Part shown: one piece after another, positions 271-27,798 of the stretch
Position numbering within the stretch: the stretch's first letter is position 1
Layout of the letters: each line of letters starts with the position of its first letter
Assembly (NCBI GenBank): GCA_000806015.1
Contig: JWKY01000008.1
Span: forward strand, 1 to 48,218
From: an archaeon GW2011_AR19
Lineage (GTDB): Archaea; Nanobdellota; Nanobdellia; Pacearchaeales; GW2011-AR1
DNA: 48,218 nucleotides
Direction: 5' to 3'
The notes under the pieces: generated by a model
What the model was told of the DNA's origin: nothing
What the model saw: only the letters and a program-made list of their open reading frames with translations
Database searches by the model: none
Translations under genes and position numbers: made by a program

Positions 271-555
271 ATGAAAAAAGTTGAAATAGGGATTTATAAA
301 AATTATAAAGAATATTTTGCCCAAGGAATTTCAGGTTATAAAATGACGGCAATTAAAGATGAGGATAAATATACTCTGGCCTTTAAAATCAGGGATAAAC
401 TAAATAAGAAAAAAATAAAATCTTGTTTTATCCGTCCATTTAAGAATGGCGATGCCGGTCATTATCTCCCGACGAAATATGACTTGGAAGAGATTGCGAA
501 GATTATATCAGAGGATGAAACTTTAAAAATTAAAGTAAAAATTAAAAATGAATAA
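271..555 (+). CDS. hypothetical protein
   Basis: 94-aa ATG ORF with TTTAAATA TATA-like box at ~242; no recognised motif. Confidence 0.55.
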   Translation: MKKVEIGIYKNYKEYFAQGISGYKMTAIKDEDKYTLAFKIRDKLNKKKIKSCFIRPFKNGDAGHYLPTKYDLEEIAKIISEDETLKIKVKIKNE

Positions 556-628
556 AGCAAAACATACCCTAAGGAAGGGCATAAAGGAAGTTTTCCATTA
601 TTCATTTAACAGGAAATAAAATGAATAA
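545..628 (+). repeat. Family A repeat (AAAGCAAAACAGGAAGTTTTCCA + hairpin TTATTCATTT..AAATGAATAA) carrying an extra ~21-nt hairpin insert
   Basis: Near-identical to 884-943 and 14993-15054 except for the insert ATACCCTAAGGAAGGGCATAA; AAAATGAATAA is present at both ends. Confidence 0.8.
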
Positions 629-832
629 TATAGAATATCGTTTGACCAAAAATAATCTCCCTCTTGGAATAGAAATGTTTGAGGGTATAATCTCCTGTAT
701 GTATGCTCCAATCACGAAGGAAATAATTTAGTATTGGCCGGCGAGATTCCAATCTGGTTTAAAGAAGAATTCAATAAATATAACATTAAATTAAATAAAT
801 TAAAATTAAATTTAACGGATGAATATCATGAC

Positions 833-943
833 AAATAAAGTAAATTCAGGAAAAATTTTCATTCATTCGCCCAAGCGTGGTCAAATGAAAGCAAAACAGG
901 AAGTTTTCCATTACTCATTTAACAGGAAATAAAATGAATAAAC
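833..943 (+). repeat. Two tandem Family A units; the second supplies the thermosome ATG
   Basis: CAGGAAAAATTTTCA+TTCATTCGCCCAAGCGTGGTCAAATGAA, then CAGGAAGTTTTCCA+TTACTCATTTAACAGGAAATAAAATGAATAA. Confidence 0.8.
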
Positions 944-2460
944 CAGTTATTTTAATGCCCGAAGATATTCAAAGACTAATTGGAAAAGATGCGCAAAGAA
1001 ATAATATCGCTGCCGCGAAAATGATTGCAGAAGTTGTCAAAACTACCCTTGGACCAAAAGGCATGGATAAAATGCTGGTTTCTCCGACTAATGAAATTAT
1101 TATAACCAATGACGGAGTGACGATTTTAAGTGAGATGCAAATTGAGCATCCTGCCGCGAAAATGATTGCTGAAGTTGCTAAAACTCAGGAATCTGAAATT
1201 GGCGACGGCACAACAAGCGTTGTTATGATTGCCGGGAAATTATTAGAAAATGCCGAGAAACTTTTGGATATAAAAATTCATCCGACAGTTATTATCCATG
1301 GATATAAAATTGCTGCTGAAAAATCTTTGGAGATTTTAAAAGAGATAGCCTTTAAAGTTGACAGTTCTGAAACGCATGACGATGAAAACGATATTTTAAA
1401 ACAAATTGCAATGACTGCTATGACCGGCAAGAGCGCAGAGGATTCAAAAGAAAAACTTGCTGATATAATTATTAAAATCATAAAGCAAATTAAAATATGC
1501 AGTCAGGAAGTTGAAAATTTTAATTTAAATGATATTAAAATAGTAAAGATTAGAGGAGAAAGCATTAAAGACAGCGAGCTAATTTCCGGAATTGTTTTAG
1601 AAAAAGAAAAGATTTCACATGAAATGCCGTCGGAAATCAAAGCAGCGAGAATTGCTTTAATTGATGTTCCTTTGGAGCTGAAAAATCCTGAAATTACCAC
1701 AAAAATTTCCATTTCTTCTCCGGAGCAATTGCAGGGATTTTTATTTCAGGAAGAGCAGATAATAAAACAAATGATTGATAATATTAAAGATTCCGGAGCA
1801 AATGTTGTTTTTTGCCAAAAAGGAATTGATGATTTTGCCCAGTATTTATTAGCCAAAGAAGGAGTTTATGCCTGCAGAAGAGTTGCCAGAAGCGACATGG
1901 AAAAACTTTCTAAAACCACCGGAGCAAAAATTATTTCCAATCTGAAAGAAATAACTCCATTTGAACTTGGCGGCGCTGAACGTGTTAAAGAAATCAGGCA
2001 CGGCGAGAATATTATGACTTATGTTTATGGCTGTAAAAATCCAAAATCTTTGACAATATTAATCCGCGGAGGAACAGAGCATATTCTTGACGAAGTTGAG
2101 AGAGCAATGAAAGACGGGCTTGGAGATGTTCTTTGTGTTTTGAAATCTGGATTAATTGTTTTAGGAGGGGGAAGCGTGGAGGTTGAATTGTCCAGAAGAT
2201 TGAGAATCTTTGCTAAATCTCTAATCGGGAGAGAGAAATTAGCAGTGGAAGAATTTGCAAATGCTTTAGAATTTATTCCTATGACATTAGCAGAAAATGC
2301 AGGTTTAGACCCGATTGATATTTTAACTGAACTAAGATTTTTACATGACTCCGGGCAAATTAATACTGGCTTGAATTTATTTACAAATAAAATTGAAGAT
2401 GTTTTAAAAGCAAGAATTATTGAGCCGTACAGCATTAAAAAACAGGCAATTAATTCTTGA
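934..2460 (+). CDS. ths: Thermosome (group II chaperonin) subunit, C-terminally truncated
   Basis: [36 protein letters not shown] motifs; ends at KKQAINS*, lacking the usual A.E....ILRIDD end. Confidence 0.9.
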
Positions 2461-2533
2461 TTTTAATTAATCACGAAGGTAAATGTAAAAAATAGAAATC
2501 GGGGTCGGGAGCAGAGCGACTTTGCGAGAGAAA
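2457..2533 (+). repeat. Family B structured repeat (..CGAAGGTAAATGTAAAAAATAGAAATCGGGGTCGGGAGCAGAGCGACTTTGCGAGAG)
   Basis: Reverse-complement match to 30557-30620 and 39406-39474; partial copies at 2634-2666 and 6545-6570. Confidence 0.85.
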
Positions 2534-2570
2534 CTTATAAAATTAAATAAATAAAAAATAACGAGTGCGA

Positions 2571-2628
2571 GCGTTTACGATTTGACAAACTTTTAATATT
2601 AATATAAATTAATGCAAATCGTGGGCGC
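2571..2628 (+). repeat. 14-bp hairpin with three consecutive T-G pairs
   Basis: GCGTTTACGATTTG (2571-2584) pairs with CAAATCGTGGGCGC (2615-2628). Confidence 0.7.
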
Positions 2629-2709
2629 AAGTTGGGTCGGGAATAGAGCAACTTTGCGAGAGAAAATTAGAAAAGATAATTTTTTAAACTTGTAAATTCT
2701 TGATAGTCT

Positions 2710-2913
2710 ATGGAAAATATAAACGTAAGCGCAGAAGATTTGAAAAAATTAATTAGAGATGTAGCTCAAATAAAAGAAATGCTTACAGAAGAAAAGGGAG
2801 AAATAGAATTAACAAATTGGGCTAAAGAAGAATTAGAAGAGGCAAGAAATCGTTCTGAAAAAGAGTATGTTTCTTTGGAAAATGTTAAAAAAAGAATATT
2901 ATCCAAAAAATGA
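2710..2913 (+). CDS. Putative antitoxin (RelB-like)
   Basis: Small acidic ORF ending YVSLENVKKRI; ATGA overlap with the downstream RelE. Confidence 0.75.
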   Translation: MENINVSAEDLKKLIRDVAQIKEMLTEEKGEIELTNWAKEELEEARNRSEKEYVSLENVKKRILSKK

Positions 2914-5360: not shown

Positions 5361-5415
5361 ATTTTTATTCTTTTTCTTTTTTTTATGAATCTGAAAAGTT
5401 CTGATTAGGAAGTTT

Positions 5416-5433
5416 TATAAACTATAGTTTATA
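5416..5433. promoter_or_regulatory. Perfect 18-bp palindrome overlapping the TATA region; likely autoregulatory operator of the HTH-MNT gene
   Basis: TATAAACTA|TAGTTTATA immediately upstream of 5447. Confidence 0.55.
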
Positions 5434-5446
5434 TATGTAAACTAAT

Positions 5447-5986
5447 ATGGATATCTATAAACTAAAATGGACAAGATTACAATACAGAATATTTTCATTG
5501 CTTTGCATTAGAGCCGGGGAAGAGCTAAGCCAACGGGAAATTGCGCAATTATTAAAAGTTTCCCCAACCGCTGTAGCTAAATCATTAACCTTATTAAATA
5601 AAAATAATTTAATAACTATTAAAAAAACTAAAAATATTAATTTTGTTGAGTTTAACGGGGATGAGAGAAAAGCAATAAAGCTCAAACAAGCGGAAAATTT
5701 AAGGAATATTTATTTATCCGGTTTATCTGATTATCTTGAAGAAAACTTAGCTGGAGGAACTATAATCTTATTTGGAAGTTATTCTCGGGGAGAAGATGTT
5801 AAAAATTCAGACATAGATATTGCCGTAATTGAAAGAAAAGAAAAACCACTAAAATTAAAAGAATTTGGGCTTATTTTAAACAGGGAAATAATTGTGCAAT
5901 TTTATGATTCTTGGAAGAACATACATAAACATTTAAAAAATAATATTTTAAATGGCATAATCCTTGCCGGGAGTGTTGAGCTATGA
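5447..5986 (+). CDS. wHTH + minimal nucleotidyltransferase (MNT) antitoxin
   Basis: HTH (LSQREIAQLLKVSPTAV) and LFGSYSRGEDVKNSDIDIAV. Confidence 0.9.
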   Translation: MDIYKLKWTRLQYRIFSLLCIRAGEELSQREIAQLLKVSPTAVAKSLTLLNKNNLITIKKTKNINFVEFNGDERKAIKLKQAENLRNIYLSGLSDYLEENLAGGTIILFGSYSRGEDVKNSDIDIAVIERKEKPLKLKEFGLILNREIIVQFYDSWKNIHKHLKNNILNGIILAGSVEL

Positions 5987-6090
5987 AAGCAAAAAGCAAA
6001 CAAGAAGTTTTCATTCGTTTTCCGAGGACGTCAAACGAAACAGGAAGTTTTTTCATTCATTCAAATTTCAGGAAAAAATTCAAATGAAAG
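5983..6090 (+). repeat. Two tandem Family A units between MNT and HEPN
   Basis: ATGAAAG at both ends (5983, 6084); hairpins TTCGTTT..AAACGAA and TTCATT..AATGAA. Confidence 0.8.
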
Positions 6091-6524
6091 ATGCAGGGGA
6101 TTTTGAAGAGTTTATTAAAAAAGGAATTGTTAAAAAACAAAGCCCTAATAAATTCAGGGCAGAATTTCTTATTAAAGAATCAGAGAAGAATTATTCTTTT
6201 TTATTGCAGTTATTGGATAAATTTGAAATTACTGACGGCAATGCAAACACAATCATAAAATTATGCTATGATATTCTTATGGAAACAATAAGAGCAAAGA
6301 TGCTTCTTGATGGATATAATGCCTCGGGATTTGAAGCGCATAAAGCTGAAGTTGCGTATCTCAAAGTTTTGGGGTTTGAAGAAAAAGATATTAAATTTGC
6401 AGATCAAATGAGATATTACAGAAATGGAATGCTCTATTACGGAACAAGTTTAGATAAAGAATATACTGAAAAAGTTTTGGAATTTACAAAAAGAAATTAT
6501 TTAAAATTAAAAATCTTAAAATGA
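6084..6524 (+). CDS. HEPN-like partner of MNT
   Basis: Helical ~146 aa with RYYRNGMLYYG (RN-x3-Y variant); true start probably ATG 6084 rather than 5964. Confidence 0.75.
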   Translation: MKDAGDFEEFIKKGIVKKQSPNKFRAEFLIKESEKNYSFLLQLLDKFEITDGNANTIIKLCYDILMETIRAKMLLDGYNASGFEAHKAEVAYLKVLGFEEKDIKFADQMRYYRNGMLYYGTSLDKEYTEKVLEFTKRNYLKLKILK

Positions 6525-7035: not shown

Positions 7036-7342
7036 ATTTTATTGATGTTGAATTAAAGAAGACATTTGAAGAATTAGAGAATTTAGACTCTCGACTCTAT
7101 AAGGAAATTAATAAAGCAATAAATGATGTTTGTCAAAATGCTTTTTGCGGCAGAAATGTAAAAAAAAAGTTAATCCAAAAGAATTGAAACAAAAATATAA
7201 TATTGATAATCTCTGGATTTATAATTTAAGAAAAGATTGGAGATTATTATATTCTATCGGTAAAGATGAAATTGAATTGATTGCCGTAGTTCTTGATTGG
7301 ATGAATCATAAAGATTATGAGAGATTATTTGGATTTAATTAA
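7020..7342 (+). pseudogene. RelE-superfamily toxin, frameshifted near 7160-7180
   Basis: ATG 7020 frame MECKVNF..GRNVKKKLIQKN*; the -1 frame continues PKELKQKYNIDNLWIYNLRKDWRLLYSI..WMNHKDYERLF. Confidence 0.7.
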
Positions 7343-7343
7343 A

Positions 7344-7919
7344 ATGAAAAACAACGAGGAAGTTGAAAAATTAGCGAGAAAAATTATTTCTGAGTTAAAG
7401 CCTTTTTGCAAAAAAATTAAAATTGTTGGAAGCATTGGAAGACATGAAAAAAAACATGTTGATATTGATATTGTTTTAATCCCAAAAGACAGAAAGAAGC
7501 TTGAAGATTTTATGAAGACGCGGGGAAAATTTTTGCAGGGAGGAGAGCATGAGTCAACATGGAAAGTTAAATACGAACAAAAAACAGGAAATTTTTTGAC
7601 AAACTCTGCTCCCGACCTCGCACGAGCTATTGATAAAAAAATTTACTCTCTACCACGAAGTCGCTCGCCCAAACGTGGACGAGTTAAGGGAATTCAGATA
7701 GAACTTTATTACACTAATGAAAAAGAATGGGGAGCGGAATTGCTGGCTTATTCGTCGTCAAAAGGTTCTGCAATTGGATTAAGAGTTATTGCAAAGAAAA
7801 AAGGGCTTCATTTAACACAGCATGGTTTGTTTAAAGGAAAAAAAAGAATTGCCGGCAAAACTGAAAAAGAAATTTATAGAGCGTTGGGGAGAAAATACAA
7901 AAAACTTGAGGACAGATGA
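7344..7919 (+). CDS. Minimal DNA polymerase X-like protein (palm+thumb) with a 39-aa repeat-derived insertion
   Basis: IVGSIGR..DIDIVL and WGAELLAYSSSK..AKKKGLHLTQHGLF..EKEIYRALG motifs. Confidence 0.8.
   Translation: MKNNEEVEKLARKIISELKPFCKKIKIVGSIGRHEKKHVDIDIVLIPKDRKKLEDFMKTRGKFLQGGEHESTWKVKYEQKTGNFLTNSAPDLARAIDKKIYSLPRSRSPKRGRVKGIQIELYYTNEKEWGAELLAYSSSKGSAIGLRVIAKKKGLHLTQHGLFKGKKRIAGKTEKEIYRALGRKYKKLEDR
7565..7687. mobile_element. 117-bp in-frame composite repeat insertion (Family A + Family B parts) bounded by AGTTAA direct repeats
   Basis: AGTTAA at 7565 and 7682; contains AACAGGAAATTTTTT, CTCTGCTCCCGACC, AAGTCGCTCGCCC and CGCCCAAACGTGG. Confidence 0.75.
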
Positions 7920-9106: not shown

Positions 9107-9351
9107 TGTTTGAAATAAAATGGGAAGAAAAAGCTCAAAAAGAATTATACAAATTAGAAAATCAAATTTCTTCTAGAATCTATAAAAAGATTAATGAGCT
9201 AAAACAAGGATTTCAATCAAAAGACATAAAACGAATTCAAGGAGAAAATAAATTTAGATTAAGAGTTGGGGATTATAGAGTTCTCTTTTCTTTGGAAAAT
9301 GACTTAATAACTATCTGGAAAATTGGACATAGAAAAAATATCTGTGATTAA
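9106..9351 (+). CDS. relE: RelE family toxin
   Basis: FRLRVGDYRVLF..IGHRKNI. Confidence 0.9.
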   Translation: MFEIKWEEKAQKELYKLENQISSRIYKKINELKQGFQSKDIKRIQGENKFRLRVGDYRVLFSLENDLITIWKIGHRKNICD

Positions 9352-9352
9352 T

Positions 9353-9565
9353 ATGAAAATAAAAATAAAACTTCATCCAAATTCATCACAGGAAAAAATA
9401 GAGAAAATATTAGAGAATAATTATGAAGTTTGGATTAAAGAAAAACCAATTGATAACCAGGCGAATATTGAGCTATGTAAAATATTGAAAAAATATTTTG
9501 GAAAACCCGTAAAAATAAAAAGCGGTTTTACATCAAGAAATAAAATTATTGAAATTTTGGAATGA
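9353..9565 (+). CDS. DUF167/UPF0235 (YggU-like) protein
   Basis: IKLHPNS..KPIDNQAN.EL..IKSGFTSRNK; start reassigned to ATG 9353. Confidence 0.85.
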   Translation: MKIKIKLHPNSSQEKIEKILENNYEVWIKEKPIDNQANIELCKILKKYFGKPVKIKSGFTSRNKIIEILE

Positions 9566-9620
9566 AAGCAAATAGGAAATTTTCATTCATCCAAATTTCA
9601 GGAAAAAAATAAAATGAAAT
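9561..9620 (+). repeat. Family A unit at a stop/start junction
   Basis: AATGAAA at both ends; contains the stop of the upstream gene and the ATG of the next. Confidence 0.8.
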
Positions 9621-10015
9621 ACGAACCTGCGCCGGACATTCAAATAATTGTTGAAGAACTTTGTGTAAGTTTGTTTCCGCATGTAAAATTGGACAGAGTT
9701 AAATGTTTTAGGAGTTTTGGAACTTCTTCAAGAGGAACTATTGCAAGATGCCACGCTCTCGGAAAATTAATGCAAAAAGCAATTGGGATTGACGCTGTTT
9801 ATGCTTTAGAATTTTTGTGTCCAAGATTTGAAAAATTATCTGAAGAAGATAAAATAAAAACAATTATTCATGAATTAATGCACATTCCTAAAACTTTTGG
9901 CGGAGGATTCAGGCAGCATGATTTTGTTTGCGAAAAAAATGTTGCCCTTCATTACGAAACTTACAAAGCGAAAAAAGCAGACAAGGAAAAAATGAAGAGG
10001 TGGTTTGGAGTATGA
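9614..10015 (+). CDS. Putative metallopeptidase (HExxH)
   Basis: IIHELMHIP..FGGGFRQH. Confidence 0.8.
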   Translation: MKYEPAPDIQIIVEELCVSLFPHVKLDRVKCFRSFGTSSRGTIARCHALGKLMQKAIGIDAVYALEFLCPRFEKLSEEDKIKTIIHELMHIPKTFGGGFRQHDFVCEKNVALHYETYKAKKADKEKMKRWFGV

Positions 10016-10650: not shown

Positions 10651-11679
10651 ATGTCAATTATTTTAGGAATTGAATCAACAGCGCACACTTTTGGAATTGG
10701 AATTGTAAAAAATGGAAAAATTCTTTCAAATATTAAAAGCAGTTTTACAACTGAAAAAGGCGGGCTGATTCCCCTGGAAGTTGCTAAGCATCATCGGGAA
10801 AATAAAGAAAGAATTTATTTTGAATCTTTAGAAAAAGCAGGAATCAGCGAGGAGAAAATTGATGCAATTGCTTTTTCTCAGGGTCCTGGATTGGCTCCTT
10901 GTCTGCTTGAAGGAATAAAATTTGCAAAAGAGATTTCATTAAAATTAAAAAAACCAATTATTCCCGTGAATCATTGTGTTGCTCATCTTGAAATTGGTCA
11001 AATAACTGGTGCGAGAGATCCGGTCATGCTTTATGCTTCCGGAGCAAATACTCAAGTGATTGCTTATGCTTCTGGAAAATATAGGGTTTTTGGAGAAACT
11101 TTGGACATTGGCGTCGGTAATTTTATTGACACTTTTGCGCGCTACGCAGGAATTGGTTTTCCCGGAGGACCAGCAATAGAAAAATTATCTTTAACAGGAA
11201 AAACTTTAATTGAATTGCCTTACACAATCAAAGGAATGGATTGCGCTTTTTCAGGAATTTTAACTAATTTAAAACAAAAATTGGAATCTGGGTCCCCAAG
11301 GGATGACTCTGATGAGCCTTCTGGTGAGCCTAATTATAAATTATCTGATTTAGCATATTCAATGCAGGAAGTTGTTTTTGCAATGCTGGTTGAAACTGCA
11401 GAAAGAGCTTTGGCGCACACCGGAAAAAATGAATTGCTTTTAGGAGGAGGTGTTGCATGCAATTCAAGATTACAAGAAATGTGCAAAATAATGTGCGATG
11501 AAAGAGGGGCTAAATTTTTTGTTCCATCAAATGATTTATTAACTGATAACGGCAGTATGATCGCATATTTGGGTGAAATTTTATTTAAAAATAGAGATTT
11601 TATTCTAGCTAAAGATATTGATAAAGTAGACATAGCCCCACGTCAACGAACTGACGATGTAGAAATAAAATATAAGTGA
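10651..11679 (+). CDS. kae1: tRNA t6A threonylcarbamoyltransferase Kae1/TsaD
   Basis: GIESTAHT, GPGLAPCL, NHCVAHLE, GGGVACN, DNGSMIA. Confidence 0.95.
   Translation: MSIILGIESTAHTFGIGIVKNGKILSNIKSSFTTEKGGLIPLEVAKHHRENKERIYFESLEKAGISEEKIDAIAFSQGPGLAPCLLEGIKFAKEISLKLKKPIIPVNHCVAHLEIGQITGARDPVMLYASGANTQVIAYASGKYRVFGETLDIGVGNFIDTFARYAGIGFPGGPAIEKLSLTGKTLIELPYTIKGMDCAFSGILTNLKQKLESGSPRDDSDEPSGEPNYKLSDLAYSMQEVVFAMLVETAERALAHTGKNELLLGGGVACNSRLQEMCKIMCDERGAKFFVPSNDLLTDNGSMIAYLGEILFKNRDFILAKDIDKVDIAPRQRTDDVEIKYK
11293..11331 (+). repeat. Family C in-frame coding repeat (39-bp form, SPRDDSDEPSGEP)
   Basis: TCCCCAAGGGATGACTCTGATGAGCCTTCTGGTGAGCCT inside kae1. Confidence 0.9.
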
Positions 11680-12973: not shown

Positions 12974-14971
12974 ATGAAAAAATTGGCGATAATCTTTGGA
13001 TTATTTTTATTAATGTCTGTTGCATTTGTTTCTGCGCATTATAATTCTGAAAATGATTTAGATAAAAACGGAAAAGTTTCTTTTAGCGAATGGATAAAAA
13101 ATATTTTTGGAAAAATTACTGGGAAAGCATTGGACCAACCTCAACAGGGACCTCTTCCTCTTTGCCTTGACAGCGACGGAGATGGTTATAACTCTACTAT
13201 TGGTGACGCGTGTGGGAGAGTTGTAGATTGCAATGACCTCAATAAGCTAATCTATCCTGGAGCTCCAGAGAATACCACTGCTCTTTGTTCGGACAATTTA
13301 GATAATGATTGTGATTTTGGAAAAGATTGCGCGGATTCTAATTGCAATTTAAAACTTAGTACAGGAGGAAAAACTTGTCAATATGGAACTGAGACAACTT
13401 GTAATGATGTTTTCGACAACGATGCTGATGGAAAAATAGATTGCGCTGATTCTGATTGTAGTTCTTCTTCTTCTTCTTCGTGTGTGCAAGTTGGTTGCGT
13501 GAATGGCGCTACCCAAATCTGCGGGACTACTGATGCTGGAGAGTGTAATAAAGGAGTTCAAACTTGCTCAAGTGGGCAATGGAGTGCTTGCGGAGGTGCT
13601 TATGTAGGTCCTGCAACAGAAATCTGCGGAAATAATATTGATGAGGATTGTAACGGGGTTGATTTGGTTTGTCCTATTACTGCTTGCACAGATACCGACG
13701 CTGGAATAAATTACACTATTGCAGGAAGCGCATATAATTTAACTTTTTTAAATTCTCCAAAACAAGATTATTGCATTAATAATACTCATTTAAATGAAAG
13801 TTCCTGCTCTGTAAATAATGCAGTTATTTCTCAACCTTATAATTGTAAATTATTAGGCGCTGCATATTCGTGCTCTCAAGGAGCATGCTCCTGCAACCCT
13901 ACTTATGTAAAATCCAGCTGTGCAAACGAAATCGCAGTTTTTGAAGACGCAAGCGCCTGTGGCGCTTCTGATTATACTGCGCCTTATGACTGCGACGGAA
14001 ACGGGGTAATTTCAAAACCTTCCTGCATTTCAACAACTGCTGACGTTTCAATAGGAGAAGGAATGGAATTTTTGCCTTTTGATAATTCAATAAATTATTC
14101 AGGCGCGGGTTCGCAAATAGTGCAGGTAGCAGAAGGTTATCAGGGAGTTGAATTTGACTGGAATTTTTCAGCTTCAGAAAAACTTGATTTTTGTGACATT
14201 GAAATTAAAACCTCTTCTCCAACAAATAACTTTGGTTATGTTTTGTTTAATTCAACTCAAAATATCTCCAATAAAATAGTTTATGTTGATAAATTAAATT
14301 CAAGTTCAGGAGCAGTTTGCATAAAAGATGTTTCCGGAGTTGTTTCAGTCAGTGAATTTAGTTCTAATTGTTCTGCAAGCAACGAAGTTTTATTGATATG
14401 TCCCTCCCCAAGGGATGACTCTGGTGAGCCTTCTCCGACTAATTCAATTTATAATTGTGATATTTCAGAGGATAATCTTACATTTATTGTTTGGCCTTTA
14501 AATCATTCTGCAGTTAAAGAGATGTTATCAATTACCGGATTAGTCAGCGACGGAACAGGATGTTTTGAAAATTGGAATTGCACCGAATGGTCTGACGCTG
14601 TTAATCAGTGCGGAACAAAAACTTGCAATGATTTAAATAATTGCGGGACAAATCTTTCAAGACCCTTAGAAATTAAAAGTTGTGTTTTGATTGGAGAGAC
14701 AGAAGGAGACGAATTTGAGACAGGCACAAGTGAAAGTCGGGAATCTAATACAAAATCTGTTCTTTTTATTATCCTTGGAATTGTCGGACTTATTTTAATT
14801 ATTTTTCTTATTTTGCATTTTATGAAAAGAGGAAAATCTGAAGAAGAATTTTCAGAGCCTCCAGCACACCATCAACAAACTCCTCCTCCAAGAAGTCTGC
14901 CTGCTCCTCCTCAAAACAGAGCAGTTCATCATAACCAATATCAACATACTCAGTTAGCTCCTCAGCGTTAG
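12974..14971 (+). CDS. Cys-rich surface protein with putative metal-binding (DxDGDG/DCND/DNDCD) repeats, C-terminal TM and Pro/Gln tail
   Basis: Signal peptide, DSDGDGY..DCNDLNKLIYPGAPE, EICGNNIDEDCNG, hydrophobic anchor. Confidence 0.8.
   Translation: MKKLAIIFGLFLLMSVAFVSAHYNSENDLDKNGKVSFSEWIKNIFGKITGKALDQPQQGPLPLCLDSDGDGYNSTIGDACGRVVDCNDLNKLIYPGAPENTTALCSDNLDNDCDFGKDCADSNCNLKLSTGGKTCQYGTETTCNDVFDNDADGKIDCADSDCSSSSSSSCVQVGCVNGATQICGTTDAGECNKGVQTCSSGQWSACGGAYVGPATEICGNNIDEDCNGVDLVCPITACTDTDAGINYTIAGSAYNLTFLNSPKQDYCINNTHLNESSCSVNNAVISQPYNCKLLGAAYSCSQGACSCNPTYVKSSCANEIAVFEDASACGASDYTAPYDCDGNGVISKPSCISTTADVSIGEGMEFLPFDNSINYSGAGSQIVQVAEGYQGVEFDWNFSASEKLDFCDIEIKTSSPTNNFGYVLFNSTQNISNKIVYVDKLNSSSGAVCIKDVSGVVSVSEFSSNCSASNEVLLICPSPRDDSGEPSPTNSIYNCDISEDNLTFIVWPLNHSAVKEMLSITGLVSDGTGCFENWNCTEWSDAVNQCGTKTCNDLNNCGTNLSRPLEIKSCVLIGETEGDEFETGTSESRESNTKSVLFIILGIVGLILIIFLILHFMKRGKSEEEFSEPPAHHQQTPPPRSLPAPPQNRAVHHNQYQHTQLAPQR
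14405..14431 (+). repeat. Family C in-frame coding repeat (SPRDDSGEP)
   Basis: TCCCCAAGGGATGACTCTGGTGAGCCT. Confidence 0.9.
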
Positions 14972-14992: not shown

Positions 14993-15054
14993 AAATAAAT
15001 AAAGAAAACAGGAAGTTTTCATTATTCATTTAACAGGAAATAAAATGAATAAAG
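14993..15054 (+). repeat. Family A unit
   Basis: AAAACAGGAAGTTTTCATTATTCATTTAACAGGAAATAAAATGAATAAAG. Confidence 0.8.
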
Positions 15055-15153
15055 ATTTATAAAGCAACTTTTTCTTTACTAAATATCCAATGAGCGATTA
15101 AAAATTCGCGAGGAATTTTTAATTGTTCTTATAACTAAATAGAAATAAAACCA

Positions 15154-15215
15154 AAATGAAAGCAAAAACAGGAAATTTTTGTATTCATTCAAATTTCAGG
15201 AAAAAATTTAAATGA
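15154..15215 (+). repeat. Family A unit supplying the L7Ae ATG
   Basis: AAATGAAAGCAAAAACAGGAAATTTTTGTATTCATTCAAATTTCAGGAAAAAATTTAAATGA. Confidence 0.8.
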
Positions 15216-15931: not shown

Positions 15932-16170
15932 TAATTGATTTAGAAATTCCAACAATAGAAAATGGAAAAATTAATTTTTCTAAATTAGAATCTGAATTAG
16001 GAAAGTTTTTTTGCAATGATCCGGAAAATGTTTATGTTAATGTGATGGGAAAAGATAAATTTCTTGTAAAAGAAGTAATGGATAATTTACAACCTTCTTT
16101 TGATTATAAAATTCTTGGAATAGGAAGAAGAAAAGATAATTATTTAATTAAAGTTGGAGCTAAAATATAA
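15928..16170 (+). CDS. hypothetical protein within the r-protein operon
   Basis: ATGA-coupled to rps28e; 80 aa. Confidence 0.6.
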
Positions 16171-16171
16171 A

Positions 16172-16336
16172 ATGCCAATCTGTTTTTATTGCAAAAAAGA
16201 ATATGATATTCATAGGGGTTTGACTTTTATTTTAGCTGACGGAACAATAAAGCATTTATGTTCCTCAAAATGCAGAAAAAATATGCATATGAAAAGAAGA
16301 AAAGTTCGTTGGATTTCTAAGAAGAAAAAAGAATAA
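16172..16336 (+). CDS. rpl24e: 50S ribosomal protein L24e
   Basis: CFYC..G..DG....LCSSKCRKN..RW; start ATG 16172. Confidence 0.9.
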   Translation: MPICFYCKKEYDIHRGLTFILADGTIKHLCSSKCRKNMHMKRRKVRWISKKKKE

Positions 16337-16545: not shown

Positions 16546-18747
16546 ATGGTGTATAAAAAGTATATTAAAAGAGGGGGTAAGTTATTTGGTCCGTATTATT
16601 ATAGAAGTATAAAAAAAGGCGGTAAGGTAATTACTCAATATGTTAAAAACCCAAACGATTTTCCCAAAAAAAAGTTTTCAATTGGCTATAAAAAGATTAA
16701 TAAAAATTTCTTAATTTTGCCGATACTCTTTTTAATTTTAATTGCAGGTTTCTTTATTCTTAAGCCCGTTTTAACCGGTAAGGTAATTCTTTCTGTTGAT
16801 AATTCTTATGTTTCTCAGGAAGCTCTTTTTGGCGAACTAAAGCTGAATTTAGAGCCAAATGAATTTATTCCTGCAGATACAAAAGTTTTAATTAACAATG
16901 AAGAATTTATTTTAAGAAATTTAATAAAAGAAATTCCAAAACCGGGAGAATTTTATGTTTCTGGAACAGAAATTTCCGGGAAAGGAGAGGGCTATGGTTC
17001 AGGAAATCCGGAAGTTTTTTTTGTTTTGAATATTTTGTCTGAGAAAGAGAAGGATAAAGAAATTTCTAAGGGAATTTTAGAAAATGAAACAACAGAATCT
17101 AATGAAGCTGAAGAAGAAACAGAAACAATAGAATCTAATGAAACTAAAGAAGAAATTCCTGCAGAAATAACAACTTCTGAAATTCCTGAAACTGAAGAAT
17201 CCCCAAGGGATGACACTGGTGAGCCTCAAACACCAATAGAAGAAATAGAAGAGACAACTCCGGCAACAGGGCAAATAATTTTGAATTTTTTTAATAAAAT
17301 ATTTTTGACAATTACAGGAAAAACTGCTCTTGAAAATGTTAATGAAGTTTCAGGAAGAGTTTCTAAAGACAAGCCAATTGTTTATGCGCTTGAACAGGGT
17401 CAGACAGCTGAAATAAAAAATTCAAATGAAAAAGTAAATTTGGAAATAATAAACAATACAGCGACTATAACAACGGATTATTCAGGCGAGAGGGCGGAAT
17501 ATTTGATAAATTTGTCTGAATTAAATATTCTTACAGGACAAAATGAATTTGAAATTAAATTAATTTACAACGACACTGAATTTGCTTCTATAGTTAAAAA
17601 TGTTAAATTTGAAAGCAATGAAACAAATATTACCGGGAGCAGTGTGATTTTTGAAAATCTTACAGAAGAGATAATTCAGCATACAGCAATTGCAGGAAAG
17701 CCGGTAAAATGGACAAAAAAAATAAAAGCAGATAGTCGGGAAACAAATGTTCTGCTTCCAAAAGAGGCAGAAAATATTTCGATTTATAAATTGGAGAATA
17801 CAATTGCTGCGGATTTGAATAATTCAATAACCGGAAGTTTGATTTTAAGTTATGAAAAAGAAAATCCTGGTTTTTTTAATAGATTATTTGCTTTTATTAC
17901 AGGAAGAGCAGTAGAGATTATTGAAAGGCAGGAAGAAATTGAAATTAATATCAGCGAAAATGCAAATAGTGATTATGAAATTGAATATTTTACTCCCGGA
18001 CCTGAAATTACAGAAAAAAATATTTCTAATGGAAAAGAGATTGTAATTTCTTCTGAAGTTAATTATGAAAACATTTTAGCATATACGGCTCTTCCCGAGA
18101 ATATTAATTTAGAAGAAATTAAACTTTATCATAAAATAAATGGTTCTACACCCGACGGTGTATCCTCTGGTGAGGTAAGAGTTTTAGTGGATTTTATTGC
18201 TTATACCGAAGACAATAAAATTGTAGAAAATGAAAATGATTTAGATGATGATGTTTTGAATGAAATTGAAAATAAAGTTTTGAAAAAAGAAGAAAATGAA
18301 ATTATGGAAAATAAATCTTTGGATAAACCATACAGGAATATAATTTATGGAGAAGAAATCCAAGAGAAATTAGATTATCAAATTAAAAAAATAAGAACAG
18401 AAAGCAAAGAAAAAGTTTCTTATATTGAATGGATTGTTCCGCATTTGTCAAATCAGACTTATGAACTTATTTTAATTTCAAAAGCAGAACATCTTGACGA
18501 AAATAAAACTTTTATTGAAGATGTTTATGAGCAGGTAAAAGAAAGAGATGGCAATTTTACAAACGAAATTCCTGCAAAACATTACATCAGAGTAACTTTT
18601 GAAAAAAATCTGACAAATGAAAATGATATTACAATTTATGCAAAGGCGGGCTGCAATGGCTCCATAAAAATAAATGAAATAGATGTTCCTTGCGAGATTT
18701 ATGAAAAGAAAATGAGGCTTGATTCCTTAAGAGGTGAAAATGGATAA
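16546..18747 (+). CDS. Large membrane-anchored acidic surface protein
   Basis: Basic N-terminus, TM, repeated (I/L)TG(K/R/S) motifs, Glu/Thr-rich linker. Confidence 0.75.
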   Translation: MVYKKYIKRGGKLFGPYYYRSIKKGGKVITQYVKNPNDFPKKKFSIGYKKINKNFLILPILFLILIAGFFILKPVLTGKVILSVDNSYVSQEALFGELKLNLEPNEFIPADTKVLINNEEFILRNLIKEIPKPGEFYVSGTEISGKGEGYGSGNPEVFFVLNILSEKEKDKEISKGILENETTESNEAEEETETIESNETKEEIPAEITTSEIPETEESPRDDTGEPQTPIEEIEETTPATGQIILNFFNKIFLTITGKTALENVNEVSGRVSKDKPIVYALEQGQTAEIKNSNEKVNLEIINNTATITTDYSGERAEYLINLSELNILTGQNEFEIKLIYNDTEFASIVKNVKFESNETNITGSSVIFENLTEEIIQHTAIAGKPVKWTKKIKADSRETNVLLPKEAENISIYKLENTIAADLNNSITGSLILSYEKENPGFFNRLFAFITGRAVEIIERQEEIEINISENANSDYEIEYFTPGPEITEKNISNGKEIVISSEVNYENILAYTALPENINLEEIKLYHKINGSTPDGVSSGEVRVLVDFIAYTEDNKIVENENDLDDDVLNEIENKVLKKEENEIMENKSLDKPYRNIIYGEEIQEKLDYQIKKIRTESKEKVSYIEWIVPHLSNQTYELILISKAEHLDENKTFIEDVYEQVKERDGNFTNEIPAKHYIRVTFEKNLTNENDITIYAKAGCNGSIKINEIDVPCEIYEKKMRLDSLRGENG
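17200..17226 (+). repeat. Family C in-frame coding repeat (SPRDDTGEP)
   Basis: TCCCCAAGGGATGACACTGGTGAGCCT. Confidence 0.9.
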
Positions 18748-20083: not shown

Positions 20084-23000
20084 AATAAAAAATTTAACAA
20101 TATTTGGAATAATATTAATTTCTATTTTCTTATTTATATTTTTAGCAAGCGCATTAACTCCGCAGGAAGAGATTGCGCAATTAGAAAACGAATTAAACAG
20201 CGCGGGTTATGATTGGCTCGTTAACTATTCCCTAAGGGATGACCCTCATGGGCCTAATTTAACTTATCCTAGAGTTGAAGTTTATGAGAAAGATAAGAAT
20301 GATACAATTGCAACTTTTGAAAAAATCAGCGAAGACAAGGAATATAAAATTTATCTGACAAATCTAAATGGAAGCCAGAACACTTTTGATTTGAAAGTTT
20401 TTTCCCCAAGGGATGACTCTGGTGAGCCTGGAGGAAGTGTTTGGTTTGATTATATTGTTGACCCGATTATTCTCGGAAATGCCAATTCAGTAAATACAAA
20501 CACAACTTATGAAAACAACTTCACGCACTTAAACGTCTCAAATTCATCAATAATTGCATATTATCCTTTTGATGTTAATAATAATTCTGATGGAATAACT
20601 TATGATTATACAGACAAGAATAATGATGGAGTTAAAATGACTGGAGTAACTTTTAACAATACTGGATGTATTTATGGAAATTGTTATACTTTTAGAGGTT
20701 CTGATGCCAGTAATCTTACTCTTCCTAATGGCGCAGGAGTTTATGGTTCATCTCCAAGAACACTGTCTGTATGGGTAAAAACAACAGATACTTTTGGAGC
20801 ATTTTGGGCTTATGGAAATAGAAATGCAAATACTGAGGAATTTACATTATTTATAAACAGCGGTTCAACTATATTGCTTAAAATTCAAGGAGCGGGAATG
20901 ATTCAATGGCCAACTTCTAACGTTCTAAATGGAAATTGGCATAATGTTGTTTTAACTTATAATGGAAGCACAATTAATAATTCTGAATTATATTTAGATG
21001 GAGTTAAATTAGTCAGAACTGAACTTACTGTAGGAACTCCAAACACTCAACCTAAATTCTTTATACTTGGCATGGCTCAATATGCGGGGTATGAATTTGC
21101 AGGAGAATTAGATGAATTTATGGTTTGGAATACTGCTTTAACCGCTGACGAAGTTTTAGCGATTTACAACAACCAAACAAATAGATTTTTTCCAACAGGA
21201 ACAATGAATTGGACGGGTGTGAATTTTGCAGGAAATGATACAATAAATATAACTTTGCAGGGTTGTCAGCAAAACATGGGAAGCTCTTTGAAAGCAAGTG
21301 TCAATGACGGGGCTTTTGTTGCATTTGACAGCAATTGTTTTATTCAGGATTACAATGCAACAGGAGATTTAAATTCTGCAAATGTGACAATTCAATTTCT
21401 TGCAGGAACAAATAATTTTTACACTCCGTTGGTAATTGGGAATTTGAGTTTGGATAATAGAGATGCAATTTTCCCGCAAATCTCTTTCAAATCCCCGACG
21501 CCTGCAAATGGAACTATCAGCTCAGACAATAATTCAATCATCATAAATACTTCTATAACTGAATTAAATTTAAATACGGCAAAATTTAATTGGAACGGAA
21601 CTAATTTCACGATTTTCAATGATTCAACAGTTTTGCATTTGGGTTTGAATAATTTTTCAGCAATTGGAGAAAACGGAACTCGTGTTGTGGATGTTTCAAA
21701 ATATGAAAATCACGGAACACCTAATGGGGCATTTTTTAATAGCACAGGAGGATTTTATGGCGGAGGTTATACTTTTGACGGCGTGAATGATTTTATTAAT
21801 GTTAGCGACCCTTCAAGTCTTAATATAACTGGCAAAATAACAGTTGCGTCTTGGATTAAACTTTCAGCATCTCAACTTAATGCACCCATTGTAGCAAGAT
21901 GGGGGAGCGACCAAAGTTATTTGCTGGGTGTAGACTATGTGACTGCTAATAAGATTATATTTGGAATTAGAGTTTCTGAGGTGTCTAAAACTGCAACTTC
22001 AACAAATACTTATAATGATGGGAAATGGCATCAAGTTGTTGGTGTTTTTAATGGAACAAATGTTTTGCTTTATATTGATGGAGGAGCAGAAGCGGTAACA
22101 GGAAGTGCAACAACAGGACCTATTGATGGACCCGCAAATAATGTTTTTATTGGAAGTTATAATTCCCTTGGTAATTTTTTCAACGGCTCAATAGATGAAG
22201 TCCGTATTTTTGACAGAGCTTTATCTGCAAACGAGGTTACACAATTGTATATGTCAAATTTGCAAAAGTTAAATAATACAGATTGGCTTCTTTATGTTAA
22301 TCAGACAAAGCATAATTCAACAACTGGTTTAGGCAACGGGCAATATACTTATTTCTCAACTGCTATAGATACGGCAGGAAATGAAAATTCAACTGAAACA
22401 AGGACAATAACTTTAGATACAACAAATCCAACTTTTACCTGGAACTCGCCAACACCCGCAGACAAAACATTTTCGTCAAGTAATTCTTCATATTTGAATG
22501 CAACAATTACCGACGCCAGTAATACTTCAGCATGGTTTGACTGGAACAAATCAGTTAAAGGATATTGGGCAATGGATTTCAGAAACTCAACAGATGTTTT
22601 TGATAATTCAACATACAGCAACTTTGGAACAATTTCAGGAGCAGTAGCAAACATTTCAGGAAAACGCGGGGATTCTTTTACTTTTGATGGTGTGAATGAT
22701 TTAATAAATATTAATACAGCAGTTGGTGATTTGGCTGCAACAACTAAAGGAACTTGGAGTGCTTGGGTTAAACCTGTTGATGCAACGCCTACGGCTCAAG
22801 ATGAAATTATTGCATTTGCTAATGGTGATCAGACAGATATGATACATCTTATGATAGATATAACGACTGGAAATTTTCGGATAAATGCTATAAATAATGG
22901 GGCAGCATTGTGGCAAGTGGCTACCGACGTTGCTCCTTTTTCTGATAATACCTGGACCCAGATTGCATTAGTTCAAGACGGGGTTTCGCCAGTTTTGTAT

Positions 23001-24985: not shown

Positions 24986-24986
24986 A

Positions 24987-26969
24987 TTAGATACAACAAA
25001 TCCCTCAATAGTTTTTGCAAATCCGACGACAAATGCGAGTAATCTTTCTCAGGAGGATATTTTAGCGAATGTAACTTTCACTGAAGCAAATATTAATATC
25101 ACAAACATAACTTTGTATAATTCAACCCAGAATATAATTAATTCAACAACGGGCACAACCTCGCCGGTTTATATTAATTTTTCAGATTTGGAAAACGGAA
25201 AATATTATTTAAATGCAACAATCAGCGACACAGCAGGAAATACAAATCAAACAGAAACAAGAGAGATAATTTTAGATACTATCAATCCTCTTTTAAATAT
25301 AACTTTTCCAACAAATAATTCTTTTAGTTCAATCACTAATTTAAGTATTAATTATACAAGAAGCGATGCTACTGCAGGATTGAGTACTTGTTGGTATTCA
25401 AATGACACTTACACAACAAATACAACTCTTGCAGATTGTAATAATATAACAACAGTTCAGTGGGCAGAAGGACAGCATAATTTAACAATCTGGGTTAATG
25501 ATACTGCTAATAATCAAGATTGGTTTAGAATAACTTTTACTATTGATACAACTCTCCCTGTTCCAGTATTTGCAAATCCAACAACAAACTCTTCAAATCT
25601 TTCACAAAATTTCATACAAGCAAATGTGTCTGTAACAGAAACAAATCTTAATACAATAAATATTTCTTTATTTAACTCAACACAAAATTTAATTAATTCA
25701 ACTGCCGGAACAACTTCACCGCTTTATATTAATTTTTCAGATTTAGAAAACGGAAAATATTATTTGAATGCGACAGTAAATGATTCTGCAAATAATAAAA
25801 ATTATACTGAAACAAGAACGATTTATTTGGATACTGTTGCTCCTAATTTAACTATAAATTCCCCAATAGCGACGACTTATTCTGTTTCTACAATTTTATT
25901 TAATGCAACTGCAATAGATTTTACTACTTTTGTAGATTCATGCTGGTACACATTAAACAGCGGAGCAACAAACCAGACTCTTTCAAGAGCAGGAACTTCA
26001 AACTCTTATAATTTCACGCAAACTTCAGTTGCAGACGCAAGTTATACTGCAAGATTTTATTGCAATGATACTGCAAATAATGTAAATAATACTGAAACAA
26101 AAGCATTTACAATTGATACGAGTGTTCCCGTTCTTGGAGGAGGCGGACCAGCGCCTGCTGTCGGGGCTGGCGGAGGAGCCGGAGTTTCAAAGCCGTCGCC
26201 AAAAAGAATTTTTAATTTGAATTATAATATGTATGATACAACAATTTCATTAAAGCAGGTGGAATTTGATTTGCTCAAGATAACAAACAATGGAGAAATA
26301 TCAGACGATTATATAATCGAAGTTAAGACAATAGGAAATATTATTTCTTTTGAAAATAATAAAATGAGTCTTGAACCAGGCGAAACAAAAGGCGCTGAAT
26401 TTAAAATTTCCTCTCCAAAAGAGCCGGGAATTTATACAGGAAAAATAATTGTTACAAATGGAATTTCTGAAAGGGAAGTTTTGGTAACAATAAATGTAAA
26501 AACAGAAAAAAGTTTGTTTGATATAACTCTTGCAATTCCAGAATCTTTAAAAATTCTTTTAACAGGACAAAACTTAATTTCAAAAATTGATTTAATTCAG
26601 ATGGGAGCAAAAGAAAAAATAGATGTTACTTTAAGATATGTAATAAAAGATTTTGAAGGTCAGACTTATCTTCAGGAGTCGGAAACTATTGCAGTTATAG
26701 ACCAAAAATCATACGAAAAAGAATTTTTTACAAGCGAACTTCCTCCTGGCCAGTATGTTTTTGGAACTGAACTAATACATCCTGACGGAGTTGCAGTAGC
26801 AAGCACTCATTTTGTTGTGCAGGAAAAAGGATTTAAATTTGGAAAAGATGATATTTTATTGACTTCTTTAATTCTTGTTTTAATTTTAGTCTCTCTAATT
26901 ATATTTTTATCAATTAGGAAATATAAGAGAGTTGGGAAGATGCTGGGAAAAAGAAAGACATTAAACTAA
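24987..26969 (+). pseudogene. LamG surface protein part 3 (Ig-like repeats, Gly linker, C-terminal TM)
   Basis: Frame from TTA GAT ACA 24987; no own signal peptide; C-terminal hydrophobic anchor. Confidence 0.8.
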
Positions 26970-27063
26970 TCTAGATACGTTTAAACTAATATGGAGACAT
27001 ATAAACTAAAATGATTAATTTTCTAACCAAAAAAGTTAAAAACTTAGTTTATTTAGGATAAAC

Positions 27064-27264
27064 ATGGAACAAAAACGATTAAACCTCGAGAATATGGGCA
27101 GAGAAATAATTGCTTTAAAGCAAGAGATGGAAAGAATGAAAGAGTTTATTAAAGAAGATTTAGAATTTGCAATAAAAACAGAATTAGCGTGGCAAAGGCA
27201 TGATCGCGGAGAATTTACTAGAATAGATAGTGAAGAATTTCTTAAAGAAATAAAAAAATGGTGA
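27064..27264 (+). CDS. Putative antitoxin
   Basis: Small ORF ..DRGEF....EEFLKEIKKW overlapping the toxin start. Confidence 0.75.
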   Translation: MEQKRLNLENMGREIIALKQEMERMKEFIKEDLEFAIKTELAWQRHDRGEFTRIDSEEFLKEIKKW

Positions 27265-27506
27265 AAGTTGACTATGATGATAATTTTAAACAAATTTTTT
27301 CTAAAATTAAAGATAATTTGCTTAGAATAAAAATTGAAAAACAAATAGAAAAAATAATTCAAAATCCTGAGATTGGAAAACCTATGCAACATAATAGAAA
27401 AGGAACAAGAGAAATTTATGTTAAACCTTTTAGATTATCTTATGCTTATCATAAAGGAGAGGATTTATTAGTATTCTTAGATTTTTATCATAAAGACGAG
27501 CAATAG
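27258..27506 (+). CDS. RelE/ParE family toxin
   Basis: NPEIGKPM..GTREIYVKPFRLSY..YHKDEQ. Confidence 0.85.
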   Translation: MVKVDYDDNFKQIFSKIKDNLLRIKIEKQIEKIIQNPEIGKPMQHNRKGTREIYVKPFRLSYAYHKGEDLLVFLDFYHKDEQ

Positions 27507-27538
27507 AAATGTGGAACGCTAAATATCCGGGATATTAA

Positions 27539-27675
27539 AATTACTCGCTCAGCGGATTTATTTATAATCTTTATCCAGGCAGTTTTTTAATTATGATTTA
27601 TCTTAATTAATTAACTTAATATCTCGAACTTTTCTATTATGGCAATTTTTTTAATTTCTGCGAGCAGGTATTTTC
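27539..27675. repeat. Family D ~130-bp dispersed repeat
   Basis: Homologous to 16336-16467. Confidence 0.65.
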
Positions 27676-27680
27676 AAGAA

Positions 27681-27798
27681 TAAATTAATAAAGTAAAAAC
27701 AGGAAATTTTTTCATTATTCCTTTTACGGGAAATAAAAGAAATAAAGCAAATTCAGGAAAAATTTCCATTATTAATTTCAAGAATAAATTAATAAAGC
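27681..27798 (+). repeat. Two tandem Family A units
   Basis: CAGGAAATTTTTTCA+TTATTCCTTTTA..TAAAAGAAATAA; CAGGAAAAATTTCCA+TTATTAATTT..AAATTAATAA. Confidence 0.75.

Follow-up and report, generated by a model that had tools for sequence, protein, structure and literature searches.

The 48,218-nucleotide (nt) stretch analysed here, the window, is contig 8 (JWKY01000008.1) of the archaeon GW2011_AR19 (genome G000; 678 kb, 30% G+C, 75% complete), and it carries, between and within its genes, copies of a short hairpin-forming repeat. An earlier note, made from the sequence alone, had described a "family A" of such repeats, each an A-rich box followed by a hairpin at an ATGA stop/start junction, and all copies that it listed were found in place on the + strand. 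As it had claimed, the start codons of the thermosome gene (934), of the gene that follows an MNT-type nucleotidyltransferase gene (6084), of a metallopeptidase gene (9614) and of the L7Ae gene (15212) fall within the 3' arm of a unit. The arm pairs that it quoted, TTATTCATTT/AAATGAATAA, TTCGTTT/AAACGAA, TTCATT/AATGAA and TTATTAATTT/AAATTAATAA, and the recurrence of the 3' arm sequence just upstream of the unit, can be read directly in the sequence. Pfam searches recovered Cpn60_TCP1, NTP_transf_2, DUF167, PhageMetallopep and Ribosomal_L7Ae for window genes. The label HEPN given to the gene after MNT was not borne out, with no Pfam match at E ≤ 0.01 and no NCBIfam match better than E = 0.09, and a supposed partial copy at 7579 proved to be a full-length unit belonging to a sister subtype, into which another repeat is nested. 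At gathering thresholds, Rfam returned nothing for the whole window except a tRNA at 35192-35273.

Anatomy and genomic placement of the repeat family

Within the window, the core motif CAGGAARTTTT with at most one mismatch gave 31 matches, compared to 10.1 ± 3.6 (maximum 19) in 100 dinucleotide-preserving shuffles. When the box was searched genome-wide with a weight matrix, 111 sites were found in G000 and 8 on the reversed sequence used as control; the repeats are thus real and far above chance. The genome scan revealed that "family A" is one arrangement of shared modules. A unit comprises an A-run/AGGA(A/G)/T-run box and then a second hairpin, in which the stem varies and the loop is drawn from a small conserved set (AACAGGAAAT, CAGGAAAA, GCCCAAGCGTGGTC, TCCGAGGACGTC, CGCTTGAGGACAATC or TCTTCAGGAAAAAGC). 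It ends in AAATGA(A) or TAAAG and measures 27-60 nt, or 117 nt when nested. The box forms a small hairpin of its own, compensated variants of which include AAAGAT..ATCTTT and GAGAAAC..GTTTCTC. Further modules are a 27-nt tandem unit, GATACAAAACAGGA(A/G)(A/G)TTTTGCATAA(TG), and the module TACCCTAAGGAAGGGCAT.

Intergenic DNA, which makes up 13.6% of the genome, holds 61 of the 111 sites, while 48 are coding-sense and 2 antisense; at 56 of the 61 intergenic sites the next gene lies on the same strand. A same-strand copy lies upstream of 38 genes; in 22 of these, AGGA comes as close as 45 nt or less to the start, with distances clustering at 13-15 nt (9 genes) and 31-43 nt (12 genes), indicating that the unit ends on the start codon. 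The repeat is thus phase-locked to gene starts. At 12 genes, the start codon itself falls within the 3' arm. Target-like words are sense-biased in this genome (AAATGAA 555:106, TTAAAG 722:471), a bias too small to be the sole cause of the sense orientation of 109 of the 111 sites.

Copies lying in frame within genes encode K/E/Q/N-rich peptides, with at least three reading frames in use, and further examples occur in other long open reading frames (ORFs), e.g., at C1:78070 between KKQAKK and ILFLGRISPIK. A conserved leader peptide was rejected as an explanation, since the reading frame of the shared DNA changes from copy to copy. A tRNA-derived origin of the loop GCCCAAGCGTGGTC, as in short interspersed nuclear elements, was likewise rejected, the loop bearing only a loose likeness to the D-arm of the G000 tRNA-Leu.

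Filled and empty alleles among related genomes

The comparison set consisted of three genomes of the same genus (G001, G002 and G003) and a further relative (G015); together with G000 these are metagenome-assembled genomes (MAGs) of 72-93% completeness. DNA searches of G001-G003 with the window and the ribosomal-protein loci revealed empty alleles at 12 sites, i.e., at L7Ae, upstream of the thermosome gene, in a PolX-like ORF and at 9 ribosomal-protein junctions, so that the repeat is a multi-copy inserted element, as the earlier note had supposed. The units sit on A-rich ATG(A) starts or stop-start junctions and duplicate them (AAATGA at L7Ae; 11-14 nt at ribosomal-protein junctions).

The L7Ae site is empty in all three congeners; G001 and G003 read AAAATGACAGATATATATCAG, whereas the window reads CCAAAATGAAAG, then 58 nt, then TTTAAATGACTGACATATATC, with AAATGA duplicated. 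In the PolX-like ORF, the site reads TGGAAAGTTGAAGG in G002 and G003, and the window is longer by 117 nt (39 codons), in frame. Ahead of the thermosome gene, G002 has 12 nt between the upstream gene and ATGTCAAACAAACCAG; the window has 385 nt (546-930) of units and other DNA in their place, and the thermosome start, ATGAATAAACCAG, derives from the 3' arm of a unit. In the ribosomal-protein operon, 9 of the 17 junctions differ in presence or absence among G000-G003. Junction 5 is a plain ATGA overlap in G002 and holds three different units in G000, G001 and G003, while junctions 7 and 13 are overlaps or 1-nt spacers in three genomes, compared to 212 and 99 nt in G000. In G000, at least 6 of the 17 junctions bear units; over the whole genome, 27 of the 267 co-directional spacers 25-260 nt long contain one.

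The subfamilies are restricted to species or genera and represent lineage bursts. Counted in G000 and 40 relatives, the 27-mer is confined to G000 with 25 copies, the ATGAAAGCAAAAACAGGAA type has 9, 3, 13 and 8 copies in the four congeneric genomes and 1 in the other 37, and the loop GCCCAAGCGTGGTC is present in 8 of the 41 genomes. Relatives in which the repeat of the window recurs are MAGs that carry the label Pacearchaeota, Nanoarchaeota or Woesearchaeota.

The earlier note had further claimed that removal of the element would restore ATGA coupling at two junctions. Excision of 5987-6087 does restore a CTATGA overlap, matching three paralogous MNT gene pairs of 65% identity that have a plain ATGA overlap. 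The DUF167-peptidase case did not stand, as the two genes are non-adjacent in G002 and G003 and no ancestral coupling is evident there. DUF167 and metallopeptidase genes (9323-10015) are neighbours only in G000 (compared to G002:C128, G002:C184 and G003:C13), which puts the unit at 9562..9616 precisely on the junction of a rearrangement; the metallopeptidase genes of G002 and G003 are preceded by promoter-like regions of their own.

Two observations concern the ribosomal-protein operon of G000:C1 (L045). Its junction 2 reads AAAAATGAAATATGAAATTTAAAG, with ATGAAAT twice in tandem, which may be an excision footprint; the same junction holds a 64-nt unit with a 14-nt duplication in G002 and is a plain ATGA overlap in G001. 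In addition, about 80 nt (…GGAACAGGCAATAACTGATTCAAAAAAACCGGAGATTCAAAAAAAAGAAG…) are common to junctions 0 and 7, beside the units, representing a segmental duplication.

Hairpins, start signals and probable mode of spread

RNAalifold, applied to a MAFFT alignment of 10 window hairpins, returned 0 consensus pairs because subtypes with differing arm and loop lengths are out of register in a plain alignment; covariation was therefore measured on 43 distinct copies with the GCCCAAGCGTGGTC loop (at most two mismatches), taken from G000 and from fetched loci of relatives and anchored on the loop. In this set, 33-41 of the 43 copies have a Watson-Crick pair at each of stem positions 1-5, where 2-4 pair types are seen per position. 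Over pairs 1-7, 203 Watson-Crick cells were counted, compared to 139 ± 6 (maximum 161) in 1000 arm permutations and to 62-93 when the partner was slid out of register. The stems thus covary, as had been claimed. Templated correction within quasi-palindromes is a known mutational route that can also yield covariation.

Single-sequence folds range from -5 to -17 kcal/mol (-20 kcal/mol for a 131-nt nested insert), with z scores from -4.8 to +0.2; the weak ones include 884-945 (z -0.4), 5983-6095 (z +0.2) and 829-945 (z -0.25). In the units at 9558 and 15150, the 5' arm is predicted to prefer the left duplicate, leaving the real start open. Of the claim that the hairpins bury start codons, the location of the start within the 3' arm stands, whereas the folds are weak and, in these two units, leave the start accessible; burying by the predicted hairpin is doubtful. 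One well-folding copy, at 14993, starts no gene. A dedicated control function is therefore possible but not required by the data.

Loops beside starts nearly always contain AGGA or GGAG, and the AGGAG or AGGAGG of the 27-mer units begins at -14/-15, the same position as the canonical GGAGG of the genome. In G000, which is poor in Shine-Dalgarno (SD) motifs, element-borne CAGGA lies upstream of the start in 34 of 832 genes and canonical GGAGG in 32 of 832. A 16S rRNA 3' end with the anti-SD was not found, as G000, G001 and G003 contain no 16S gene and G002 has only the 5' part.

In all five start-associated copies of the window, a reading frame runs uninterrupted from the old ATG(A) to a stop that abuts the new ATG or is at most 1 nt away from it. 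Genome-wide, an unbroken chain from upstream stop to downstream start occurs in 10 of 27 element-bearing spacers, compared to 4 of 240 element-free ones and to 2.6 ± 1.2 (maximum 6) when the interiors were shuffled 200 times. Stop trinucleotides are depleted equally on both strands of the units. Stop avoidance was for this reason rejected as a sign of selection on sense frames, the antisense depletion being equally strong.

The flanking duplications vary in length, from 6 nt at L7Ae and about 7 nt at other window sites (ATGAAAG, AATGAAA) through 11-12 nt (junctions 5 and 1) and 14 nt (junction 2 of G002) to about 22 nt at 27672. Two G001 junctions carry perfect duplications of 44 and 58 nt, and these blocks begin at (T)AAAG, which matches the 3' end of the unit, and end at the A-rich word before ATGA (AAAATGA at the 58-nt site), which matches its 5' flank. 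Two independent microhomology joints at a variable distance point to template switching or short-homology repair rather than to a cut of fixed stagger. Terminal inverted repeats were not found at the units: the left end is the A-run/AGGA box, and the inverted repeat consists of the internal arm and the 3' end. We infer that the units are inserted without an element-encoded transposase and copied by template switching, which would argue against a classical MITE (miniature inverted-repeat transposable element).

The earlier note had also suggested that the element pairs with its target through its own 5' arm. This arm is complementary to the family-constant target core (CATT or AACT) at every empty-allele site. 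Beyond the core, gene-specific bases are matched at only 2 of the 5 sites that are informative, namely junction 1 (CCATTTT/AAAATGG) and junction 2 of G002 (10/12), and the 44- and 58-nt duplications do not fit a guide-directed cut. Guide-directed targeting by the 5' arm is therefore possible at most.

Altogether, we consider it fairly probable that these repeats form a lineage-specific, modular family of very small selfish elements in a Pacearchaeota-type DPANN archaeon, tolerated at start codons rather than serving as a dedicated switch. In the mechanism that we propose, the nascent strand would leave the target at ...AAATGA, copy a donor unit and return through microhomology at TAAAG or AAATGA, so that the duplication would be as long as the two joints are apart. 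The duplication would regenerate the start codon, so that the insertion is tolerated, and the unit would supply an SD-like AGGAG(G) or AGGAA 8-10 nt ahead of it. A ribosome at the old start or stop would be handed on through the mini-ORF by termination-reinitiation, and a unit inside a gene would be translated into a hydrophilic linker. If the weak hairpin influences translation at all, this would be a secondary and hypothetical effect.

Several points weigh against this reading. Stem covariation is also expected from selection on RNA structure, and the copies share descent, so that the shuffle statistics overstate their independence. The complete mini-ORF chain is missing from 17 of the 27 element-bearing spacers, and openness may be a by-product of the A-run/T-run build. 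The density of units in the ribosomal-protein operon could reflect positive selection for a function. The near-total sense orientation exceeds what the target motifs predict. The enzyme search was limited to PF01797 (Y1_Tnp), PF07282 (TnpB-type) and PF00078 (RVT_1), and the copying proposal was derived from sequence comparison.

One rival explanation is a portable translational control module, as the earlier note had proposed, in which the hairpin would sequester the start codon and the SD-like loop, downstream translation would be gated by hairpin melting, an upstream ribosome or a factor, and the element would be retained for its regulatory role. The start codons within 3' arms at 12 genes, the AGGA or GGAG of the loops, the covarying stems and the crowding of units in the ribosomal-protein operon all fit such a module, as do the 5' arm, which can pair with either the left or the right duplicate in the form of a two-state switch, and the 14990 unit, which folds well beyond shuffles (z -4.8). 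Most folds, however, are weak and no better than shuffles, and copies are found upstream of a promoter (14993), within coding sequence (7569-7685, C1:78070) and without an ATG (27672-27800). Sister-species orthologues do without units, the same junction holds different units in different species, and the subfamilies are species-specific bursts; we hold this explanation to be improbable. An array of binding sites for a CsrA/Rsm-type regulator or an archaeal analogue, spread by duplication, appears very unlikely indeed. AGGA-in-loop repeats before a start codon are the layout of CsrA targets, and AGGA is the most conserved part of the box and lies in the loop of short A/T stems, often two or three times just before a start; CsrA (PF02599), on the other hand, was found in 0 of the 4 genus genomes, with one sub-threshold match in G015, many units carry a full AGGAGG at canonical SD spacing, and the in-frame coding copies and the GCCCAAGCGTGGTC-loop copies do not fit.

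Another rival is a classical non-autonomous transposon, whether a MITE, a repetitive extragenic palindromic (REP) or an IS200/IS605-like element, with a transposase acting in trans from the unassembled genome, the host or a virus and a 5' arm that would guide it to ATGA or AGTT. In favour of such an element, a hairpin with conserved loop and variable stem resembles HUH/Y1 recognition sites, the 5' arm matches the target core at every empty-allele site and gene-specific bases at junctions 1 and 2 (G002), and the short AAATGA "duplications" would equally arise if an element ending in that word were inserted 3' of a fixed target. Yet no Y1 transposase (PF01797), TnpB-type (PF07282) or RVT_1 (PF00078) gene was found in G000-G003 and G015, which are incomplete MAGs, terminal inverted repeats are lacking, the arm reaches gene-specific bases at only 2 of the 5 informative sites, and duplications of 14, 22, 44 and 58 nt are unlike those of a transposase that makes a fixed stagger or no duplication. 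A viral origin was rejected, as two unit cores had no exact match in a viral contig collection, which also speaks against a transposon moved in trans. We regard a transposon of this kind as unlikely. A bolder proposal, which we rate as a minor though not negligible prospect, is a transposase-free element that homes to start codons. Its 5' arm, written from or selecting AAATG(A), would pair with the old or the new start, making it a portable initiation module with two states, in which the loop holds the SD, the stem holds the AUG and a mini-ORF is coupled. Template switching during replication would spread this module, which would rewire translation initiation in DPANN genomes that are leaderless or SD-poor.

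The closest analogues are the Rickettsia palindromic elements (RPE) and the mitochondrial hairpin repeats, with MITEs and REP sequences or bacterial interspersed mosaic elements (BIME) resembling the units more loosely. RPE are small palindromes of a reduced genome, found in frame in unrelated genes and in intergenic DNA (Ogata et al. 2000, 2002, per PMC10969869); as described there, they are genus-restricted, about 100-150 bp long and bacterial, with no known transposase. The G000 units share with them hairpin formation and in-frame insertion into unrelated genes, such as the 117-nt PolX-like insert absent from G002 and G003, but are archaeal, 27-60 nt long (117 nt nested), placed on starts or stop-start junctions, equipped with an SD-like motif and a regenerated ATG, almost always sense-oriented and flanked by target duplications of variable length. 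Given that the host is an archaeon, the likeness to RPE is one of analogy, not of membership.

Prokaryotic MITEs (Correia/NEMIS, ERIC, RUP, BOX) are described as multi-copy, non-coding, non-autonomous, structured and transcribed intergenic repeats that can change how neighbouring genes are expressed and can fuse to ORFs (PMC10969869); the words "Shine" and "start codon" do not occur in the text of that review. Unlike MITEs, the G000 units are much shorter, and no terminal inverted repeats, fixed duplication or related insertion sequence were found for them. Mitochondrial hairpin repeats, i.e., the sponge repetitive hairpin elements (RHE), the Allomyces double-hairpin elements and the yeast GC clusters, are transposase-free repeats of small, compact, A+T-rich genomes, which, according to PMC2800124, differ between close relatives, are mostly intergenic and occasionally in frame, and spread by a mechanism left unresolved there. 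They are organellar, and the passages of PMC2800124 covered report no start-codon placement, ribosome-binding motifs or coupled mini-ORFs for them. For IS200/IS605-type elements, the short AAATGA cases and the core-complementary 5' arm are compatible, whereas the 14-58-nt duplications and the lack of a TnpA or TnpB hit speak against them. REP/BIME sequences and REPINs (REP doublets forming hairpins), which are mobilised by REP-associated tyrosine transposases (RAYT), are short hairpins with covarying stems in mosaic, modular arrays within operons. The G000 units differ in having no RAYT (PF01797, 0 of 5 incomplete genomes), in not being strictly extragenic, in forming tandem direct units rather than inverted doublets and in their A+T-rich stems. 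What appears from the sequences to set the family apart from known small selfish palindromes is the start-codon targeting, the built-in SD, ATG and mini-ORF, and the signs of transposase-free copying; in the literature covered, from which subscription journals were mostly missing, no description of start-codon-targeting hairpin cassettes in DPANN archaea was found.

If selfish spread by template switching is correct, the smallest archaeal genomes would tolerate a steady turnover of tiny repeats at translation-start signals, even in genes that are essential, among them those of the ribosomal-protein operon, the chaperonin and L7Ae, and the copying-in by template switch would represent a rarely documented route for dispersed repeats. 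For annotation, start codons would be mis-called, neighbouring genes fused into one ORF and linkers of 15-40 residues gained. Element-borne CAGGA, being about as frequent as canonical GGAGG, would bear on the evolution of initiation signals, and junctions that are filled in one sister species and empty in another would provide a natural experiment on archaeal termination-reinitiation.

Window coordinates and further repeats

The units of the window are collected in Table 1.

Table 1. Repeat units of the window and their parts.
Feature	Position	Strand	Details
Compound unit	545..632	+	At the stop of ORF 271..555; left duplicate AAAATGAATAA
Parts of the 545..632 unit	~565-582 (module)	+	Module TACCCTAAGGAAGGGCAT; box AGGAAGTTTT
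Hairpin of the 545..632 unit	598-607/619-628	+	Loop AACAGGAAATA; fold -13.7 kcal/mol, z -2.4
Mini-ORF of the 545..632 unit	548..619		23 codons; stop 1 nt ahead of ATG 621
Tandem pair before the thermosome gene	828..933	+	Unit 1 with loop GCCCAAGCGTGGTC (869-882), arms TTCATT/AATGAA
Unit 2 of the 828..933 pair	885-933	+	Arms TTACTCATTT/AAATGAATAA
Mini-ORF of the 828..933 pair	828..932		34 codons; ends 1 nt ahead of thermosome ATG 934
Tandem pair between the MNT-type nucleotidyltransferase gene and the next gene	5983..6087	+	TGA 5984-5986; ATG 6084
First hairpin of the 5983..6087 pair	6014-6020/6033-6039		TTCGTTT/AAACGAA; without ATG
Second hairpin of the 5983..6087 pair			TTCATT.../...AATGAA; ATGAAAG duplicated
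Mini-ORF of the 5983..6087 pair	5983..6087		34 codons; begins on the upstream ATGA, stops on the downstream ATGA
In-frame insert in PolX-like ORF 7317..7919	7569..7685	+	117 nt, 39 codons
Anatomy of the 7569..7685 insert	~7604-7667 (nested repeat)		GACAAACTC...GAGTT unit, loop GCCCAAACGTGGAC; second dispersed repeat nested
Single unit between DUF167 and metallopeptidase genes	9562..9616	+	TGA 9563-9565; ATG 9614; AATGAAA duplicated
Mini-ORF of the 9562..9616 unit	9562..9612		16 codons
Unit away from a gene start	14993..15057	+	Perfect 10-bp stem TTATTCATTT/AAATGAATAA; fold -10.4 kcal/mol, z -4.8
Context of the 14993..15057 unit			Just upstream of the TATA-like TTTATAAAG of the L7Ae gene; own ATG opens 5 codons only
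Unit on the L7Ae start codon	15156..15215	+	AAATGA duplicated; left ATG 15156, real ATG 15212
Mini-ORF of the 15156..15215 unit	15156..15215		19 codons; ends in ATGA overlap
Two units with arms without ATG	27672..27800	+	TTATTCCTTTT/AAAAGAAATAA and TTATTAATTT/AAATTAATAA; fold -17 kcal/mol, z -2.3
Flanks of the 27672..27800 units			Direct repeat of ~22 nt, TTTCAAGAATAAATTAATAAAG; end 18 nt upstream of gene start 27818

The L7Ae leader (15056-15113) contains the TATA-like TTTATAAAG and then a kink-turn-like motif, CCAATGAGCG...CGCGAGG, which is kept in relatives as CCGATGAGCG...CGCGAGG (G001, G003) and CCGATGAGCG...CGTGAGG (G002) and, judged by its sequence, is probably an L7Ae autoregulatory site. 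The 15156..15215 unit now separates this motif from the L7Ae coding sequence.

Two copies of GGGTCGGGAGCAGAGCGACTTTGCGAGAG lie just past the thermosome stop (2457-2560 and 2620-2670). Read on the opposite strand, this sequence equals the segment that is nested in the PolX-like insert (7604-7667); it has many copies in G001-G003, and the family is thus present in both orientations. A repeat of about 30 nt, CCCCAAGGGATGACTCTGGTGAGCC, lies within + strand ORFs at 11280-11322, 14392-14434, 17187-17229, 20216-20258 and 20390-20432, with copies of 97-100% identity in G001-G003 and a further occurrence at one of the ribosomal-protein junctions of G002; a separate family of in-frame repeats is the probable explanation. 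The intergenic segment 16335-16470, after ORF 16154..16336, is a dispersed repeat with matches of 72-87% to several G001 contigs. Between 20073 and 26969, three large adjacent ORFs have common internal repeats of 100-300 nt at 60-98% identity and look like a repeat-domain surface protein family. A 52-nt upstream region, TAAACTA..TATAAACTAAAATG, is 79% identical at two unrelated gene starts (5418-5469 and 26962-27013).

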